DNA from: Escherichia phage T5
Length of the DNA: 64,000 bases
Reading direction: 5' to 3' (one strand)
Sequence record: NC_005859.1
Shown here: positions 6,367-63,323 of the stretch, in pieces
Layout: each line of letters begins with the position of its first letter
Numbering within the stretch: position 1 is the stretch's first letter
Program-made: the position numbers and the translations under genes
Notes under the pieces: model-generated
The model's input: the letters and a program-made list of their open reading frames with translations, nothing else
What the model was told of the DNA's origin: nothing
The model's database searches: none

Positions 6367-6423
6367 ATTCTCATAGTTTGAAAGAACTATTCTGTTTTAT
6401 TCTTAATTAAGGAAATATAAAAT

Positions 6424-6834
6424 ATGACTACTCCAACTCAGTGGACTGATGAACTGTTCGAAAAAATGTCTTCCGAATACGTTGCTCGTATGGAGCAATT
6501 CCCAGAGGATGAACGTCCGGGTGTTAGCATGGAAATTGTTAGCGAAATTGCCCAGGAAAATGGTGTAACTCCGAACGGTTTTCGTATGAAGCTGACTAAA
6601 GCAGGTTTGTATATTAAGAAAGCTGCTGGTTCTACTTCTAAATCTAGCGCATCTACTGGAGAAAAAGCTTCCGGTGGTTCTCGTACCTCCAAAGCTCAAG
6701 CCCACGCCGACCTTCGCGCAGCATTCTCTGATGCTGGCTTAGCACCAGATTTTCTGGATGATGCAATTATCGACAAACTGACCGGTAAAGCGGCTGCTCA
6801 TCTGGCAGAAGCAATCCGAGCTATCACTAAGTAA
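6424..6834 (+). CDS. hypothetical protein, probably abundant
   Basis: 136-aa ORF with E. coli-preferred codons (ctg, cgt, ggt); promoter plus RBS aaggaaa upstream. Confidence 0.65.
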   Translation: MTTPTQWTDELFEKMSSEYVARMEQFPEDERPGVSMEIVSEIAQENGVTPNGFRMKLTKAGLYIKKAAGSTSKSSASTGEKASGGSRTSKAQAHADLRAAFSDAGLAPDFLDDAIIDKLTGKAAAHLAEAIRAITK

Positions 6835-6870
6835 TTTTAGATAAATCCACCAACAAAAGGAACTATAGCT

Positions 6871-7167
6871 ATGACTAAAGCTGAAATTATTGCACAGTGC
6901 GAAAAATTTGGTGAGTTTTATCTTCATTACGAGAAACTTCGTCAGAAAGGAACCACGTACCTTCAGGGTACAATGGAATTTGATCCGGCCCAAGATAAAT
7001 ATCTGGCTGAGCGTATTAAACGCGAACGTATTCGTAAAGCGAAAGATGATGAAATCCTTGTCTTCTCTCGTACTAATGATAGCTTCCGTTTTATTCCTGT
7101 CGAGAAAGTCCGTCGTGTGACTAGCCTCCAATCAGAGTTAGATCGTGCTTCTCCAGTAGGCCGATAA
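6871..7167 (+). CDS. hypothetical protein
   Basis: 98-aa ORF, RBS aaaggaa. Confidence 0.55.
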   Translation: MTKAEIIAQCEKFGEFYLHYEKLRQKGTTYLQGTMEFDPAQDKYLAERIKRERIRKAKDDEILVFSRTNDSFRFIPVEKVRRVTSLQSELDRASPVGR

Positions 7168-7177
7168 GAAAACAATT

Positions 7178-7199
7178 AGCCCCTATATGGGGCTTTTTG
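7178..7199 (+). terminator. rho-independent terminator
   Basis: agcccc-tatat-ggggct hairpin followed by TTTTT. Confidence 0.7.
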
Positions 7200-7217
7200 T
7201 GTATTTGGGATATGTAA

Positions 7218-7526
7218 ATGAGCGAACAGGTAAATCAAAACTATGAAGGACACGTTGATGACCAGTCCATCATACTTTGGGAGAAGGAGGGGGAACAAGT
7301 AAGATTAACAGTATCTGAATTTCGTGGGAATCTATACATGGGTATTCGTTACTGGCTTCTTGATATTAATGATGAATGGTTTCCAACGAAATCTGGCTTC
7401 TCTTTTCCTTACACCCTAGAAACAACATCACAGCTTTTCTATGCGTTTACACAGATTCTTAGCGAATCTGAGGTTTTACATGAAGTACAGAAACGAGCTG
7501 AAGAACTCAAAGCCAAGAATGCCTAG
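7218..7526 (+). CDS. hypothetical protein
   Basis: 102-aa ORF. Confidence 0.55.
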   Translation: MSEQVNQNYEGHVDDQSIILWEKEGEQVRLTVSEFRGNLYMGIRYWLLDINDEWFPTKSGFSFPYTLETTSQLFYAFTQILSESEVLHEVQKRAEELKAKNA

Positions 7527-7540
7527 TTCTTGGCTTTTTC
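7511..7540 (+). terminator. rho-independent terminator
   Basis: gccaagaa-tgcctag-ttcttggc hairpin overlapping stop codon, then TTTTT. Confidence 0.65.
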
Positions 7541-7553
7541 TTTATAAATGTAT

Positions 7554-7582
7554 TTGCTTTCAACTCAGTTTTGTTATATAAT
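7554..7582 (+). promoter_or_regulatory. sigma70-type early promoter
   Basis: -35 TTGCTT, 17-bp spacer, -10 TATAAT, ATTTATATAAATT downstream. Confidence 0.6.
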
Positions 7583-7613
7583 ATTTATATAAATTAATGA
7601 GAGATATAAATAA

Positions 7614-8585
7614 ATGACTAATGTAAAAGAATTTATTAAACGCTGTCAAGAAGCATATTATCAAGGCATGTCTTTAATCTCTGATGAAGAATATGATCGC
7701 CTGGTAAAACGCTTCCCGTTAGAGGAAGAGATCGGGCCTAAGGGTGATATTCCACATCTATATCGTATGTATTCTTTACAGAAAGTTTACTATAACCGTG
7801 GTGATAAACCACCATTCAATCCTTTAGGTCAGGTGGAAACCGATAAGTTAGATGGTTGTGCAATTTCTCTGCTATATATTAACGGCGAATTTGTTCAAGC
7901 ATTAACCCGCGGTAATGGTATTCTGGGGAATGATGTCACAAGCAACGTAAGATTGCTGAACATTCCTAAAAAGATTTCCCAAAAAGTACCTACTCAAATC
8001 ACTGGTGAAGTTCTAATTACAAAAGAAGTAGAAAATAAACGTAACTTTGCCTCTGGTGCTATTAACCTCAAAGATAGCGATGATTTCGTACAACGTATCG
8101 GGGAAGGTGGTTTAATCTTCGTTGCATACGGTATCCAGTGTTCTGCTGAATCTGTAGGTATTACAGAAGCATATTTAAAAGATATGCTTTGGCTAGAGAA
8201 TGAGAACTTCTTAACAGTTGTTAATGTGCGTTCCTTCTTTAAATGGATTCCGACGGACGGTAAAGTTGTTCGTATTAATGACAACAACAAATTCTTCCGT
8301 GAAGGCTGGACTAATAAATTCCCTCGTGGAGCATTCGCTATTAAAGAGGATGAAGAAGGCGAGATTACAACTCTTACTAAAGTTGAATGGCAGGTAGGGG
8401 CTTCGGGTAAAGTAACTCCAGTTGGTTATTTTGAACCGGTAATTATTGATGATGCTACAATTGTTAAAGCAACTCTTAATAACGTTGATTATATTAACTC
8501 TCTCGATCTAGAGATCGGTTGCCAGATTCGAGTGATTCGTGCTGGTGGTGTAATCCCGTGCATAGTAGAGCGAGTATACGATTAA
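7614..8585 (+). CDS. NAD-dependent DNA ligase, N-terminal part (adenylation and OB domains)
   Basis: 323 aa; LigA-like N-terminus and KLDG adenylation-lysine motif. Confidence 0.8.
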   Translation: MTNVKEFIKRCQEAYYQGMSLISDEEYDRLVKRFPLEEEIGPKGDIPHLYRMYSLQKVYYNRGDKPPFNPLGQVETDKLDGCAISLLYINGEFVQALTRGNGILGNDVTSNVRLLNIPKKISQKVPTQITGEVLITKEVENKRNFASGAINLKDSDDFVQRIGEGGLIFVAYGIQCSAESVGITEAYLKDMLWLENENFLTVVNVRSFFKWIPTDGKVVRINDNNKFFREGWTNKFPRGAFAIKEDEEGEITTLTKVEWQVGASGKVTPVGYFEPVIIDDATIVKATLNNVDYINSLDLEIGCQIRVIRAGGVIPCIVERVYD

Positions 8586-8728
8586 TACATAACCCTTTGC
8601 TACCCATCTACCATATCGGAATTATAAAGTGGTTATTGACATTTTCGCCGCTTAGGTATATACTATTATCATTCAGTTGAGGGATAGAAAGTTATGGCGA
8701 GGGTAAGCAAAGTTAGTTAAAATTGTAG

Positions 8729-8757
8729 TTGCTAAATGCTTAAATACTTGCTATAAT
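8729..8757 (+). promoter_or_regulatory. sigma70-type promoter between ligase halves
   Basis: -35 TTGCTA, 17-bp spacer, extended -10 TGcTATAAT. Confidence 0.55.
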
Positions 8758-8787
8758 ATTTATATAAATTGATAAGGAAGAAATTTG

Positions 8788-9567
8788 ATGAAAATCGAAA
8801 TTCCAACACAATGTCCCTCTTGTGGTTCTAAGCTAGATCTTGTCAACGGACAATTATTCTGTCGTAATAAGTCCAACTGTCCAGCGCAATCAAGTAAGTT
8901 AATTGAGAACTTCTGTACAAAAATGAAGTTAAAGGGCTTTGGCCCGAAAACTATTGAGAAGCTGGAGCTGACGAAGATTTCAGAACTATTTTACCTAACC
9001 GAAGAAGATTTGGTTAGAGCCGTGGGTAGCAAGGTTGCCGCTAAGTTAATTAGCGAATTAAATACTAAAGTTCGCGGAGACATTGACTTTGGTTCAGTTC
9101 TCGGTTCTTTAGGAATCCCTCTAATTGGAGAGGTTGCAGCAAAGAAATTATCCCAAAATTGCACTAGCTTTCAAGATGTGAAGGCTGACGGCAAGGCTGG
9201 AGAAAACTATAAAGCCTGGCTAAATTCCCCACAAGGCAAGGATGTAATCGAATTACCGTGGAAATTCTCAAAGGGTATTAAGGGTGCTAAAGCTGAGGTC
9301 ATCATCACTGATGGTCTAGTAGCCCAGCCAAATGGAATCACGGTGTGTATTACCGGATCTTTGCAAGATTTTGCAAATCGAACGGATGCAACAAACTATT
9401 TAGAAGGTCTAGGATATACGGTTAAGAAATCCGTTACCAAAGACGTCAAATACCTAATCTGTGAGGATGAATCGAAGCGTTCTTCCTCATCTTATAAGAA
9501 AGCCGAAACGAATGGGATAGAAATCCTGTCGATTAAAGAACTATTGGAGAAAAATAATAATGTCTAA
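8788..9567 (+). CDS. NAD-dependent DNA ligase, C-terminal part (Zn finger, HhH, BRCT-like)
   Basis: Cys4 motif CPSCGS...CRNKSNCPAQ typical of LigA zinc finger; separate ORF about 200 bp after the N-terminal part. Confidence 0.75.
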   Translation: MKIEIPTQCPSCGSKLDLVNGQLFCRNKSNCPAQSSKLIENFCTKMKLKGFGPKTIEKLELTKISELFYLTEEDLVRAVGSKVAAKLISELNTKVRGDIDFGSVLGSLGIPLIGEVAAKKLSQNCTSFQDVKADGKAGENYKAWLNSPQGKDVIELPWKFSKGIKGAKAEVIITDGLVAQPNGITVCITGSLQDFANRTDATNYLEGLGYTVKKSVTKDVKYLICEDESKRSSSSYKKAETNGIEILSIKELLEKNNNV

Positions 9568-59191: not shown

Positions 59192-59710
59192 TTAATTGAC
59201 AATTCCAAATTCAGCTTTTTTAGTTTCTACCCATAATAATAACTCTTGTAAATCATAACCTGATTTACTAACACTTTTGTTACTAGTAGGATCTTTAACT
59301 ATAGCGCGCAAATAGTTTCTTCCGTTATTATCAACTCTAGAACCATTATAATAGATATGCTTAGGCAACTTATTAGCACGCTTATAATCTTTCTTGTTAT
59401 TCATATTCTGCTTATGGTCTACTAAGCGAAGATTATTAATGTTATTATTAGCACGGTTACGATCATTATGATCGATTGTTAGATTGCTATCAATCTCACC
59501 ATTAAATAATACCCATATTATTCTATGCACTGCGTATTGTTCGCCTGCTAACTTTACTCGATAGTAACCTGTGTTACTATAATGCCCTGCAATATCACCC
59601 ACCTTACTATTACCTTTCTGTACTTTCCATCTTAGAAATGATGGGGATGTTTCATCATAATAAAAGTTATCATTAGCAAGCGAATAATCTATATCTTTAA
59701 ATAGACCCAT
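59192..59710 (-). CDS. HNH homing endonuclease with AP2-like domain
   Basis: 172 aa; AVHRIIW...IDHNDRNRANNNINNLR...HKQN HNH motif; third member of the family at 4556 and 11864. Confidence 0.7.
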   Translation of the reverse strand: MGLFKDIDYSLANDNFYYDETSPSFLRWKVQKGNSKVGDIAGHYSNTGYYRVKLAGEQYAVHRIIWVLFNGEIDSNLTIDHNDRNRANNNINNLRLVDHKQNMNNKKDYKRANKLPKHIYYNGSRVDNNGRNYLRAIVKDPTSNKSVSKSGYDLQELLLWVETKKAEFGIVN

Positions 59711-59876: not shown

Positions 59877-60010
59877 TTAGTGAGAAACACTATCATTTAA
59901 GTTATCCACAGCCTTATACATTTTGTAAATTAACTTGACACAATAGGAAGGCTTTATAGCACTTTTACACAGACTTATCCACAGGTTATTCCACTGTATA
60001 AATATACAGG
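59877..60010. repeat. left arm of ~130-bp imperfect inverted repeat, with DnaA boxes and 16-bp palindrome
   Basis: TTATCCACA at 59903-59911 and 59975-59983; palindrome ctgtataaatatacag 59994-60009; reverse complement aligns by eye with 63192-63320. Confidence 0.65.
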
Positions 60011-60275
60011 GTAAATGGAAAACATATTATAATGATGCCCAAAATAAGCGGCCTAAAACGCTTTCTAACGAGCAAAACGCTATAGGGTAATATTAAAGTA
60101 AAGCCTCAACGCGTCGCCCTGGTGGCTTCGCCGTGTTTTGCTCTTTACTATACCGCTGCGCGGTTAGCATAAAACTAGGCGCTAGGCAAGGAAAATAAAA
60201 AGGTAAAATAATATTTGCCTATGCTAGAAAATTACCTTTATCATTCACTCACCGATTAACGAGGGAGGCCAACAA

Positions 60276-61286
60276 ATGCGGCTATATAAACCAGATAACG
60301 CAACCGTCTTAAAGGGCGCCTTGCGCAACCTGCTGGATGGTAGCAGGACAACCAGCATTAAACATTTTATTAACAAGGCTGAAACTATTCACCAAAACTT
60401 TTTTAATGATTATGATGCCTATGATATGGATAGTTTTCTACCCCTATATAAGCAGGGGGCAACGATTATCTTATATAATCGTGATTGCCATATCTTTACG
60501 GGCAGGGGAGCGGGGCCGGATACTGATTTTATTGTTGCGCAGGGTAATAATATCGTTGCGTATCATAGCAATTCAGGCCGTCAATCATTTAATATAAATA
60601 ATTTTGAGCTTGTTGGGCTTGAATTAATAAACGGACTTTCTAGCCTTGAGGGATTTTTAGATGTTATCTGGAAGTATTTATCTGCTGGATGGCATAGACC
60701 TGATAGTGATGGATCTCAATATACGGCTGTAATGGCTTTTGATGGCGACGGTAATTTTTTATTACCATCGGAATTATATCCGTATGTATATAATGAGCTA
60801 GTACAAGAAGCGGGTTTTATTTTCTGGAAAGATGAGAATCAGATCATTGACAACACGGAAAAACATGCTGTAAATTCTAACACTCAAAGCGTTAACACTC
60901 AAATCACTGAAAACAAAGGAAAAAATGCCATGACCAAGATCGCTAATATCGTTGCCGCTAATAAATCCGCCGTTGTAAATGCTGCAAAACTGGAAGCGGG
61001 CAAAATTGCATTAACTCAAATCACGAAAGTAGCGGCTAAAAAAGCACCATTTATGATTAAAGGTTATATTGATACGCCTATTGGTCGGGTAGTTATTGCT
61101 AACCTGCTGAGCGTAGCGGTTGACCAGTACGCCCCTAGCAACCAAAAGGCGAAAGCGGTAGCGGGTGCAGCTATGGAAGCGGCTATGCTAGAAATGGTGC
61201 AAAGTTTTAACATCGCTGAAATGATTGATGAAATGGTGAAAGGTATTGATATTTCTACTTTTACCGTTAACACCGAAAGCGAGTAA
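60276..61286 (+). CDS. hypothetical protein (336 aa), first gene of inverted-repeat-bounded cassette
   Basis: RBS gagggagg; mixed alpha/beta N-terminal domain, Ala-rich helical C-terminus. Confidence 0.65.
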   Translation: MRLYKPDNATVLKGALRNLLDGSRTTSIKHFINKAETIHQNFFNDYDAYDMDSFLPLYKQGATIILYNRDCHIFTGRGAGPDTDFIVAQGNNIVAYHSNSGRQSFNINNFELVGLELINGLSSLEGFLDVIWKYLSAGWHRPDSDGSQYTAVMAFDGDGNFLLPSELYPYVYNELVQEAGFIFWKDENQIIDNTEKHAVNSNTQSVNTQITENKGKNAMTKIANIVAANKSAVVNAAKLEAGKIALTQITKVAAKKAPFMIKGYIDTPIGRVVIANLLSVAVDQYAPSNQKAKAVAGAAMEAAMLEMVQSFNIAEMIDEMVKGIDISTFTVNTESE

Positions 61287-61314
61287 TAATTAACCTAATG
61301 TAAAGTTTTGTAAA

Positions 61315-61340
61315 GGTCGCCATAATCGGCGGCCTTTTTT
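61315..61340 (+). terminator. possible terminator/attenuator
   Basis: short GC stem (tcgcc/ggcgg) followed by CCTTTTTTG. Confidence 0.35.
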
Positions 61341-61404
61341 GTTATAATGCCTTTACACCGTTTGAGGACGGTTGAAAATTTTCCCAAAATTTTGGAGGCT
61401 TAAA

Positions 61405-61635
61405 ATGGTTGCTTATTCTTCTTCTGACGCTCTTTTCACTGGAAAAGGCTGGGTATCAAATCGCTGGATCATTCAAGAAATGGTGCAGGAGTTCGGCATT
61501 GCTAAAACTTACACTACCATTCAGGCGCTTTATGATAATGATCAAATCGATCAGCAAACGGCGGGCTTTTTGCTGGATACCCTGAAAGCGGAACACTGTA
61601 CTAAAAAACAAGCCGCCAAAATTGTTTTAATGTAA
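61405..61635 (+). CDS. hypothetical protein
   Basis: 76 aa from ATG with RBS ggagg 6 nt upstream (track start 61372 is TTG). Confidence 0.55.
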   Translation: MVAYSSSDALFTGKGWVSNRWIIQEMVQEFGIAKTYTTIQALYDNDQIDQQTAGFLLDTLKAEHCTKKQAAKIVLM

Positions 61636-61684
61636 TTAATAACGGGGCGTTACTTTCGCCCCACTAACTAGGGGAGTATTACAA

Positions 61685-61849
61685 ATGGTTATTTTTCGAG
61701 CTATTCTGGCAGGTATCTTGGGCGCTATTCTGACCCTTTTTGCTACCGCTTACGGTATTCAAGATTCTTATTGTGGTTTAGTAAATACTAAACCTATGGT
61801 TATTATTGGCGCGGGTATCGCTGTATTTTCTTATCTGCTGGGCTGCATG
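61685..61849 (+). CDS. small membrane protein (54 aa)
   Basis: hand-translated MVIFRAILAGILGAILTLFATAYG...; RBS gggag; not in ORF track. Confidence 0.35.
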
Positions 61850-61866
61850 AATAAAGGAGAATAAAA

Positions 61867-62079
61867 ATGATCCGCAACGTTTCTCTTGCTCGTTCAAAGG
61901 GTTTTAAGCTGGTGGATGTTAACACATTCGAGCGGGAAGATTGTAAAATCGAATATGTAGCACGTAATAAAAACGCCTTTCGTGTTACAGAAAAGAAATT
62001 TGATAAGCGCGGCAACGTGATAGCTGAAACGGTTAAACATTTTGCCACCTTTTACGCGGCTTTTCGTGGAGTGTTATAA
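61867..62079 (+). CDS. hypothetical protein
   Basis: 70-aa ORF, RBS aaaggaga. Confidence 0.55.
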   Translation: MIRNVSLARSKGFKLVDVNTFEREDCKIEYVARNKNAFRVTEKKFDKRGNVIAETVKHFATFYAAFRGVL

Positions 62080-62080
62080 A

Positions 62081-62425
62081 ATGGTAATTTATGAAGGCAA
62101 TCGCTTTGTTGCTATTTGCCGACCGGGATTATTAGCAAACTACTTAAATCAGGTGTCACCTGAATATAAAGGCGTCATTAATATTTATGAGGGCAAGGCG
62201 CATTATAAGATTAATGCGGTCGTTGCCCGTGAATTAGCATTTCAATTTTTGACTTTCGCATCTTGTGATATTCAGGTCATGGGTGAAGCGTTAATTGCAG
62301 AAAATGAAGATGATTTTATTAATATCTTCCGCAAGGTATACACCGAGCGCCTGATAATGAAAGGCGCATATATTCAGTCAACTGCGGAAAGTATTGAAAC
62401 AGCTTTCAGAAAGGTGGCGCAATGA
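62081..62425 (+). CDS. hypothetical protein
   Basis: 114 aa from ATG 62081 (RBS ggag), 1 nt after upstream stop. Confidence 0.55.
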   Translation: MVIYEGNRFVAICRPGLLANYLNQVSPEYKGVINIYEGKAHYKINAVVARELAFQFLTFASCDIQVMGEALIAENEDDFINIFRKVYTERLIMKGAYIQSTAESIETAFRKVAQ

Positions 62426-62440
62426 AGCTATATATTTTCG

Positions 62441-62719
62441 TTGGTAATGTTGAGGCTGCGAATGATTCCGCTGGTGGCGATAACGTTCGCCACTATTGGC
62501 AAAAATATATTTACTAGGGTTATTATGATTACACTGATTTGCGTTAAAGCCGAAGGCGACACGATAGCGCGAGAAGGGCAAAAATATAAAGCCCAAAAAG
62601 ATCAATTACTCAAAACAATTGAGCGTTACAAAATACCCGATCTCAAGTATTCCGTAGTAGGACGCGATGGGATTCTAAGGGCGACACTTGAGAACGCTAT
62701 CTTTGAGATAGTCAACTAA
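62441..62719 (+). CDS. hypothetical protein (start uncertain)
   Basis: track ORF begins with TTG; internal ATG at 62525 would give 64 aa. Confidence 0.35.
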   Translation: MVMLRLRMIPLVAITFATIGKNIFTRVIMITLICVKAEGDTIAREGQKYKAQKDQLLKTIERYKIPDLKYSVVGRDGILRATLENAIFEIVN

Positions 62720-62734
62720 TAACGGGGCGTTATT

Positions 62735-62938
62735 ATGAGCAATAAAATTATTGTGACCAAAACTACCACAATGGTAGACGTTTTTTATGTGCCCGATACG
62801 CCGGAGAATCGGGGAGCGGTCGAGCGGGGCGAGTATGATAGCGTTATTTATGATGCCGATGGTTATTATCAGCATTTGGTCGATTCCTACGGGGAAGAGG
62901 AGAAGATCACGCATCGATTACCCGAGGGGGATTTATGA
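62735..62938 (+). CDS. hypothetical acidic small protein
   Basis: 67-aa ORF. Confidence 0.5.
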   Translation: MSNKIIVTKTTTMVDVFYVPDTPENRGAVERGEYDSVIYDADGYYQHLVDSYGEEEKITHRLPEGDL

Positions 62939-63048
62939 AACGATGGTTTAATCACTGGTATAAACGGTTTTTAGTACGGCATCGCAAGTCTAGACAGCAA
63001 GATGATTGGCGGGAAATGGCAAAGCGTAACAATTGCCCACTTCTCTGA
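62935..63048 (+). CDS. small basic protein (37 aa)
   Basis: hand-translated MKRWFNHWYKRFLVRHRKSRQQDDWREMAKRNNCPLL; ATGA overlap with upstream stop; followed by terminator. Confidence 0.35.
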   Translation: MKRWFNHWYKRFLVRHRKSRQQDDWREMAKRNNCPLL

Positions 63049-63055
63049 TAACCGA

Positions 63056-63077
63056 CGGGGATCAGCTCCCCGTTTTT
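63056..63077 (+). terminator. rho-independent terminator closing the plus-strand cassette
   Basis: cgggga-tcagc-tccccg hairpin followed by TTTTT. Confidence 0.7.
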
Positions 63078-63191: not shown

Positions 63192-63320
63192 CTGTATAAA
63201 TATACAGTAGGATAACCTGGGGATAAGTCTGTTGATAACGCTTCAAAATGGCTAGGATTTTGTCAAGGCGAATCGTGCTGTTGATAAGTCTGTGGATAAC
63301 TTAAATAACAGTGTTTCTCA
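63192..63320. repeat. right arm of inverted repeat, with DnaA-box cluster and 16-bp palindrome
   Basis: palindrome ctgtataaatatacag 63192-63207; DnaA-box-like 9-mers (rc TTATCCACA at 63291-63299; variants at 63209-63239 and 63279-63287); tail cttaaataacagtgtttctcac mirrors the left arm. Confidence 0.65.
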
Positions 63321-63323
63321 CTT

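Follow-up and report, generated by a model that had tools for sequence, protein, structure and literature searches.

Accessory genes in the rightward pre-early arm of phage T5 and evidence for a nested start in the toxic gene T5.011

Main

Which products does Escherichia phage T5 make from the rightward arm of its pre-early DNA, and are they directed against the host cell or against its defences? We analysed a window of 64,000 nucleotides from the T5 sequence record NC_005859.1 and, within it, a cassette of small genes at 60276-63077 (positions are those of the window throughout). An earlier reading of the bare sequence, hereafter the original prediction, had described these genes as unannotatable and proposed them as candidates for anti-restriction or anti-immunity functions. 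The cassette itself is already known and is textbook T5 biology: its genes are the named T5.011-T5.017, T5.015 is a characterised enzyme, and T5.011, T5.013 and T5.015 are published as toxic, so that 'unannotatable' does not hold. With a probability of roughly 0.85, we read the cassette as the rightward arm of the T5 pre-early, or first-step-transfer (FST), region, encoding accessory host-takeover factors. Our analysis adds two conserved open reading frames (ORFs) that the reference annotation does not list, evidence for an internal start in T5.011 and the modular spread of the T5.011 C-terminal domain. It further adds a nickase annotation error, and shows that T5.014 is very strongly conserved and constantly paired with T5.015.

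The interval 60276-63077 is 100% identical to positions 6495-9296 of AY692264 (phage T5 strain st0) and 99.9% identical to AY587007. In AY692264 the match lies inside a feature described as 'left terminal repeat; comprises first-step-transfer (FST) DNA', ahead of an 'injection stop signal' annotated from 9140, which bears out the suggestion that this is pre-early, terminal-repeat-like DNA. The window is consistent with NC_005859 positions 57751-121750, and its position 61867 equals genome position 119617 in the 121,750-bp T5 genome (IMG/VR copy); from this placement, the cassette is the right terminal repeat copy of the pre-early region. Upstream of it, on the opposite strand, lie A1 (556 amino acids (aa)), A2 (135 aa) and hegG (HNH endonuclease). 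The described order is present as well, with a 336-aa ORF on the plus strand (60276-61286) followed by same-strand small ORFs up to 63048 and then by a hairpin and U-run at 63054-63077.

Published experiments support a role in host takeover. Mahata et al. cloned T5.002-T5.017 and found T5.008, T5.011 and T5.015 to be toxic, whereas expression of T5.012 in E. coli was not (PMC8201957). The T5.015 product binds the host uracil glycosylase Ung, nicks the abasic sites made by Ung and arrests host replication (Mahata et al. 2021 PNAS, PMC8201957). Annor et al. (2026, bioRxiv 10.64898/2026.04.02.716235) likewise found T5.015 to be toxic, as well as T5.011, which disorganises the nucleoid, and reported that T5.013 is toxic with lysis, the sole member with two transmembrane (TM) segments among these toxic proteins. 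The same study found T5.011 in more than 60% of Demerecviridae, and reported that hegG is toxic and present in less than 15%. These two studies are the only ones in the literature that treat the cassette genes by name. Transcription of the pre-early region is on record for the T5 relative Bas33, in which ten pre-early proteins were also detected. The expectation of host-takeover genes is borne out; T5.011, T5.013 and T5.015 are toxic in E. coli.

In the explanation that we favour, transcription would terminate after T5.011, and a second promoter would drive a polycistronic message carrying T5.012, T5.013, T5.014, T5.015, orf31, T5.016, T5.017 and orf37 that ends at a terminator just ahead of the injection stop signal. 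The products would act separately on the host as accessory takeover factors. Gp015 would bind host Ung and nick the abasic sites that Ung makes in host DNA containing deoxyuridine monophosphate (dUMP), as the literature shows; gp011 would disorganise the nucleoid and gp013, a two-TM peptide, would damage the envelope, phenotypes that have been shown for both. A nested gene in T5.011 would also yield a 118-aa helical C-terminal module, a widespread unit fused to many N-terminal domains. In the laboratory T5 can do without the arm, which is mosaic across relatives. Two points weigh against this explanation: six of the nine ORFs have no known function, so that a part in host takeover is assumed for them, and T5 deleted for hegG-T5.017 is viable with no defect beyond small plaques (Annor et al. 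2026), so any role of the arm would be conditional.

Nine open reading frames under constraint

To assess coding capacity, we gathered 50 related loci and compared orthologs codon by codon, with up to 32 distinct orthologs per ORF. The in-frame ratio of non-synonymous to synonymous change (pN/pS) is 0.03-0.29 for all nine ORFs of the arm, whereas most values for the other two frames exceed 1 (range about 0.5-4.6). Every ORF has an excess of third-position change, including the two that are absent from the reference annotation. By this comparison all nine look like protein-coding genes under purifying selection. The case is weakest for T5.016, with one distinct ortholog only; among the 50 loci this gene occurs only in the T5 records and HildyBeyeler, and Annor et al. 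(2026) place it in less than 15% of Demerecviridae. The eight genes first counted are real, and the number rises to nine with an extra 31-aa ORF (62422-62517), here called orf31.

Both orf31 and the 37-aa orf37 are missing from the NC_005859 gene list, and both are conserved and preceded by Shine-Dalgarno (SD)-like motifs. For orf31, which is annotated in some records only, the motif is GGTGG, 5 nucleotides (nt) upstream; the ORF is kept in 17 of the 50 loci, with a pN/pS of 0.23. The orf37 product is highly basic as foreseen, with an isoelectric point (pI) of 11.3 and 11 lysine and arginine residues. It is 78-89% identical in relatives and 63% identical in Epseptimavirus (pN/pS 0.26, versus 1.7 in control frames), is annotated in MM-1 and phB7, and is found only where T5.017 has its 67-aa form; its exact sequence is absent from the protein collection that we searched.

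An exact-sequence look-up returns the names T5.011, T5.012, T5.013, T5.015, T5.016 and T5.017 for cassette proteins, and PHROG families exist for seven of the ORFs. T5.011 matches the Pfam family DUF7566 (PF24450; E = 1.4e-113, 380 bits against a cut-off of 27), and a Pfam search of the other eight ORFs gave no match above threshold. The statement that the genes hold no recognisable catalytic motif is in keeping with this result, DUF7566 being the only Pfam family matched. A SoFic-like_C match in T5.012 (E = 0.13) was dismissed as below any threshold; this gene has a pN/pS of 0.20 across 28 orthologs and is annotated in strain st0 as an 87-aa version with a TTG start. The membrane peptide had been given as 54 aa with two helices: T5.013 does have two hydrophobic segments, predicted to be TM segments (Kyte-Doolittle window values of 2.33 for residues 1-19 and 1.86 for residues 38-56), and its length is 59 aa. 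It matches no described holin family, with no Pfam match and membership of phrog_5607, a family of no known function.

A widespread C-terminal module and a probable internal start in T5.011

An AlphaFold2 model of T5.011 (predicted local distance difference test score 76) divides the protein into an alpha/beta N-terminal domain (residues 1-190), a disordered linker (194-219) and a helical C-terminal domain (216-333). Scanning 1.84 billion representative proteins, we found 679 relatives, counted as representatives at 50% identity, most of which match residues ~200-335 only. Among the best 150 of these, the C-terminal domain is present in 147, always at the extreme end of the protein, and the T5-type N-terminal domain is present in just 17; the N-terminal regions fall into at least 52 unrelated clusters. 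Pfam HIRAN occurs in 24 of the 150 representatives and an ExoX-like C-terminal domain in one, and one HIRAN fusion sits in a phage-like run of small unknown genes. We considered and rejected a HIRAN-like N-terminal domain in T5.011 itself, which has no Pfam HIRAN match and aligns with the N-terminal domains of HIRAN fusions at 0.1% hhalign probability. The same division appears among close relatives, with T5 and Epseptimavirus-type T5.011 orthologs 10-50% identical in the N-terminal domain and about 100% identical in the C-terminal domain. One homolog, JLBYU40_10 of JLBYU40, is labelled 'putative DNA N-6-adenine methyltransferase'; DUF7566 is all that can be detected in it, and we do not adopt the label.

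Several features of the sequence point to a probable internal start in T5.011 at M219, from which the C-terminal domain would be made alone (candidate gene 011C; Table 1). A methionine lies 6-20 aa ahead of a conserved NK motif in 121 of 122 fusion proteins, compared with about 21% expected by chance; its distance to the motif varies, and it falls inside the disordered linker. Eleven members of the family are short or stand-alone C-domain proteins, and one of them is shown to start at that methionine. In 7 of 11 lineages, namely T5, Epseptimavirus, Sugarlandvirus, AAS21 and three unrelated fusions, AGGA or GGAG stands 6-10 nt before the ATG, in codon phases that differ between lineages and over a background of 3-6% per codon; three further lineages of the 11 have the weaker AAGG or GAGG.

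An internal sigma-70 promoter is also possible. Of the 20 distinct orthologous sequences listed, 17 keep the promoter-like element, which lies about 55 nt upstream, and they do so down to a protein identity of 54%. Synonymous-site conservation in T5.011 peaks at codons 193-212, where it reaches 0.95-0.99 against a gene mean of 0.76 (standard deviation 0.08), and the element falls within this maximum. A nested gene would fit the report that wild-type T5.011 could not be cloned and that a recoded gene of 76% nucleotide identity could (Annor et al. 2026).

Other observations weigh against a nested gene. No short T5.011 product is reported in the literature. The linker is rich in lysine, glutamate, glycine and asparagine codons, which are purine-rich and make SD-like strings likelier by chance, and between genera its third positions are no more conserved than those of the C-terminal domain. 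Promoter-like matches are common in this AT-rich DNA, with 18 found against 11.9 expected.

Nested in-frame genes whose short product is the C terminus of the long one are known in lambda C/Nu3 and T7 gene 4A/4B. Like these, T5.011 has an in-frame internal methionine with an SD-like motif, and stand-alone homologs exist. Unlike in these systems, the short product is only predicted, the module is pre-early and is neither a scaffold nor a helicase, and a promoter-like element also lies inside the gene in T5-like phages. We tentatively suggest, at somewhat less than even odds, that T5.011 is the prototype of a large, so far unrecognised class of early phage genes with two products each. If so, a module of ~120 aa, with a start codon and ribosome-binding site of its own and in T5-like phages a promoter as well, would be made both alone and as a fusion to any of more than 50 interchangeable N-terminal 'heads', DNA-end-binding HIRAN among them; on the host nucleoid, the short form would either join the long form in an assembly or regulate it. 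With 679 representatives, the module could be a general phage route for delivering varied DNA-directed effectors early. The lead offers a concrete hypothesis, open to testing, for a toxic protein whose function has so far defied prediction.

The Ung-dependent nickase and its conserved partner

Two adjacent genes of the arm, of 70 and 114 aa, have both been named as the Ung-dependent nickase. The published inactive nickase mutant carries K85A, K94A and K111A (Mahata et al., PMC8201957). The 114-aa ORF has lysine at positions 85, 94 and 111, and the 70-aa ORF is too short for those positions; GenBank calls the 114-aa ORF T5.015, and its UniRef name is 'DNA-(apurinic or apyrimidinic site) endonuclease'. 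On these residues and names, the 114-aa ORF is the Ung-dependent abasic-site nickase T5.015, and we reject the RefSeq naming of the 70-aa ORF by the exact look-up and the lysine check.

The misassignment is frequent. In PHROGs v4, phrog_4227, and in many RefSeq and pharokka records, the name 'endonuclease nicking abasic sites generated by host uracil glycosylase Ung' is attached to the 70-aa family, and the true T5.015 family, phrog_4379, goes under 'unknown function' or 'hypothetical'. In evenly spaced samples, the nickase or 'endonuclease' name is on the 70-aa gene in 11 of 60 records and on the 114-aa gene in 0 of 60. The name probably reached the wrong gene through AY587007, where the 70-aa ORF is labelled 'ORF015'. 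In that record, positions 6417-7426 split T5.011 into ORF011 (245 aa) and ORF012 (77 aa) through a 1-nt difference from other T5 records, probably a sequencing error or a strain frameshift; this split puts the ORF numbering off by one and feeds the confusion over 015. The misplaced name propagates and will mislead automated phage annotation.

The 70-aa gene, T5.014, is the most conserved of the arm, with 91-100% identity across Tequintavirus and Epseptimavirus; T5.011 falls to 54%. Among 5.8 billion proteins it forms only 8 clusters, all of at least 72% identity. Its predicted fold is not nuclease-like and, in the model, weakly resembles small immunity or inhibitor proteins. A sequence search of solved structures with T5.011, T5.014 and T5.015 returned nothing meaningful.

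T5.014 and T5.015 might form a two-protein module in which the basic gp014 serves as an immunity- or inhibitor-like regulator of the nickase, or inhibits a host repair enzyme. This would explain their constant adjacency: T5.015 co-occurs in 48 of the 48 loci that hold T5.014 (435 versus 436 phage records), the two genes lie 1 nt apart, and T5.014 is under strong constraint (pN/pS 0.06). However, T5.015 is toxic and active with Ung alone, and many relatives have an ORF of ~40 aa between the two genes, and on balance we regard such a module as rather unlikely.

Arm genes and insensitivity to restriction

T5, like other Tequintaviruses, is insensitive to restriction-modification (RM) of Types I, II and III and to CRISPR, except where the targets are located in FST DNA, and the gene behind this property is presumed to be pre-early. 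In line with the original prediction, the cassette could encode anti-restriction or anti-immunity proteins, this function included; like many anti-defence loci, the arm is accessory and mosaic and evolves fast. By contrast, none of the nine ORFs has a Pfam or PHROG match to a known anti-restriction family, and in their known activities T5.011, T5.013 and T5.015 attack the host rather than shield phage DNA. Ocr and ArdA-type DNA mimics are phage anti-restriction proteins. The cassette proteins resemble them in being small and encoded in the first DNA to enter the cell, and T5.017 is acidic (pI 4.4); they differ in lacking a sequence family match and in a distribution that mostly departs from the restriction phenotype.

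That distribution can be set against four phages, of which T5, DT57C and Bas33 are restriction-insensitive and the Epseptimavirus Bas27 is more sensitive (PMC10644984). DT57C keeps only T5.013, T5.014, T5.015 and orf31 of the arm, so T5.011, T5.012, T5.016, T5.017 and orf37 are not needed for insensitivity. The arm of Bas27 holds T5.011, T5.014, T5.015 and an orf37-like ORF, with T5.014 and T5.015 present at 90-93% identity, so these two are not sufficient. The presence of T5.013 and orf31 matches RM insensitivity, and in this comparison of four phages only they alone of the arm genes remain compatible with the phenotype; T5.013 also occurs in phiR2-01, however, which is classified as an Epseptimavirus. 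Davison favours a left-arm gene, T5p007, which is universally conserved. Our literature search found no published restriction-protection test of the cassette genes and no such activity shown. Taken together, an anti-restriction role is weakly compatible with the gene distribution, and we judge it distinctly unlikely for the cassette. The question of T5 insensitivity dates back to 1979, and the comparison removes most arm genes as candidates.

Two further anti-defence connections were considered and set aside: Rad, the anti-retron protein of the T5 family, is located outside the cassette region, and the trigger of retron Eco2 is A1 and no cassette gene.

Layout and transcription signals

Upstream of T5.011, a consensus scan finds TTGCCT-18-TATCAT at 60215-60244, and the promoter upstream of gene 011 is listed as experimentally characterised (Annor et al. 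2026). Downstream, the T-run of the T5.011 terminator (61335-61348 region) enters the extended -10 element TGTTATAAT directly, so that terminator and next promoter overlap. For the terminator that closes the arm, AY587007 gives a terminator and palindrome C, and AY692264 places the start of its injection stop signal there. An Rfam search gave a sub-threshold match on the terminator only.

Successive ORFs are separated by 118, 49, 2, 1, -4, 7, 15 and -4 nt. The original prediction took the genes to be translationally coupled. This fits the four tight junctions, of 2 nt, 1 nt and two ATGA overlaps, but not T5.011 and T5.012, which are split by the 118 nt that hold the terminator and promoter, nor the other, wider gaps.

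The locus was correctly described as repeat-bounded, with inverted repeats on both sides (Table 1) that a repeat search resolves into pairs of 39 nt at 92% and 41 nt at 88% complementarity. Comparable brackets are seen at Epseptimavirus, Sugarlandvirus and AAS21 loci. An arm bracketed in four genera by inverted repeats of ~40-68 nt, adjoined by a homing HNH endonuclease gene and opposite in orientation relative to A1 and A2 in a Sugarlandvirus, could be pictured as a mobile or invertible segment with the genes as its cargo. We find this very improbable: Pfam and PHROG searches reveal no recombinase or transposase in the arm, the bracketing repeats bear DnaA-box-like motifs and belong to a conserved injection-stop architecture (Davison), and a single inversion over long evolutionary time suffices for the difference in orientation.

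The idea that the large protein alone is real, and that the small ORFs stand open by chance in AT-rich DNA next to repeats, can appeal to the shortness of several ORFs (31-70 aa), to the two absent from the reference annotation and to the alternative starts annotated for T5.012 and T5.016, but it is already refuted by the third-position bias and low pN/pS relative to control frames in every ORF, by SD-like motifs ahead of most starts, by the seven PHROG families and by the experimental phenotypes of T5.013 and T5.015.

Table 1 Features of the T5 pre-early arm and its flanks, in window positions
Feature	Position	Strand	Remarks
hegG, HNH homing endonuclease	59192-59710	-	Left neighbour of the divergent promoter region
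Inverted-repeat pairs, left arms	59879-60009	.	Bear TTATCCACA DnaA-box-like motifs; inverted repeats C and D in AY587007
Pre-early promoter region 5' of T5.011	60203-60271	+	Putative promoter 6422-6490 in AY692264; T5P4 in AY587007
T5.011, '37 kD pre-early protein', 336 aa	60276-61286	+	Toxic; nucleoid disorganised
Candidate internal sigma-70 promoter in T5.011	60847-60876	+	TTGACA-18-TAAATT; 10/12 consensus matches
Candidate nested gene 011C	60914-61286	+	SD-like AAAGGA 60914-60919; in-frame ATG (M219) 60930; 118-aa C-terminal product
Intrinsic terminator after T5.011	61312-61348	+	10-bp stem and T-run; -16.4 kcal/mol, z = -3.9
Extended -10 element TGTTATAAT of next promoter	61340-61348	+	Terminator and promoter T5P5 here in AY587007
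T5.012, 76 aa	61405-61635	+	Exact match AAS77059; phrog_5145 (function unknown); GGAGG 5' of ATG
T5.013, 59 aa, two-TM membrane peptide	61685-61864	+	Exact match AAS77060; pN/pS 0.03
T5.014, 70 aa, basic, pI 10.0	61867-62079	+	Assigned via accession AAS77061 and gene order
T5.015, 114 aa, Ung-dependent nickase of abasic sites	62081-62425	+	AAS77062; pN/pS 0.09
orf31, 31 aa	62422-62517	+	ATGA overlap with T5.015 stop; phrog_22819; ORF017 in AY587007
T5.016, 64 aa	62525-62719	+	Alternative annotated starts 62462 (85 aa) and 62441 (92 aa)
T5.017, 67 aa, acidic, pI 4.4	62735-62938	+	AAS77064; phrog_6973; pN/pS 0.18
orf37, 37 aa, very basic, pI 11.3	62935-63048	+	ATGA overlap with T5.017; GAGGGGG upstream
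Intrinsic terminator closing the arm	63054-63077	+	Hairpin -12.9 kcal/mol, z = -2.35, then U5
Inverted-repeat pairs, right arms	63192-63322	.	Inverted repeats D' and C' in AY587007

Further observations on T5-like arms

In Klebsiella phage Shaphc-TDM-1124-4, A1, A2 and the T5.011 homolog share one strand, so that the arm is flipped relative to T5. Several entries named 'hypothetical protein [Enterococcus faecalis]' are identical or nearly identical to fragments of T5.011, and one of 64 aa equals T5.016; they come from contigs of up to 18.5 kb and are probably T5 DNA contaminating assemblies. Records named as Campylobacter or Listeria phage also bear this T5-like DNA.

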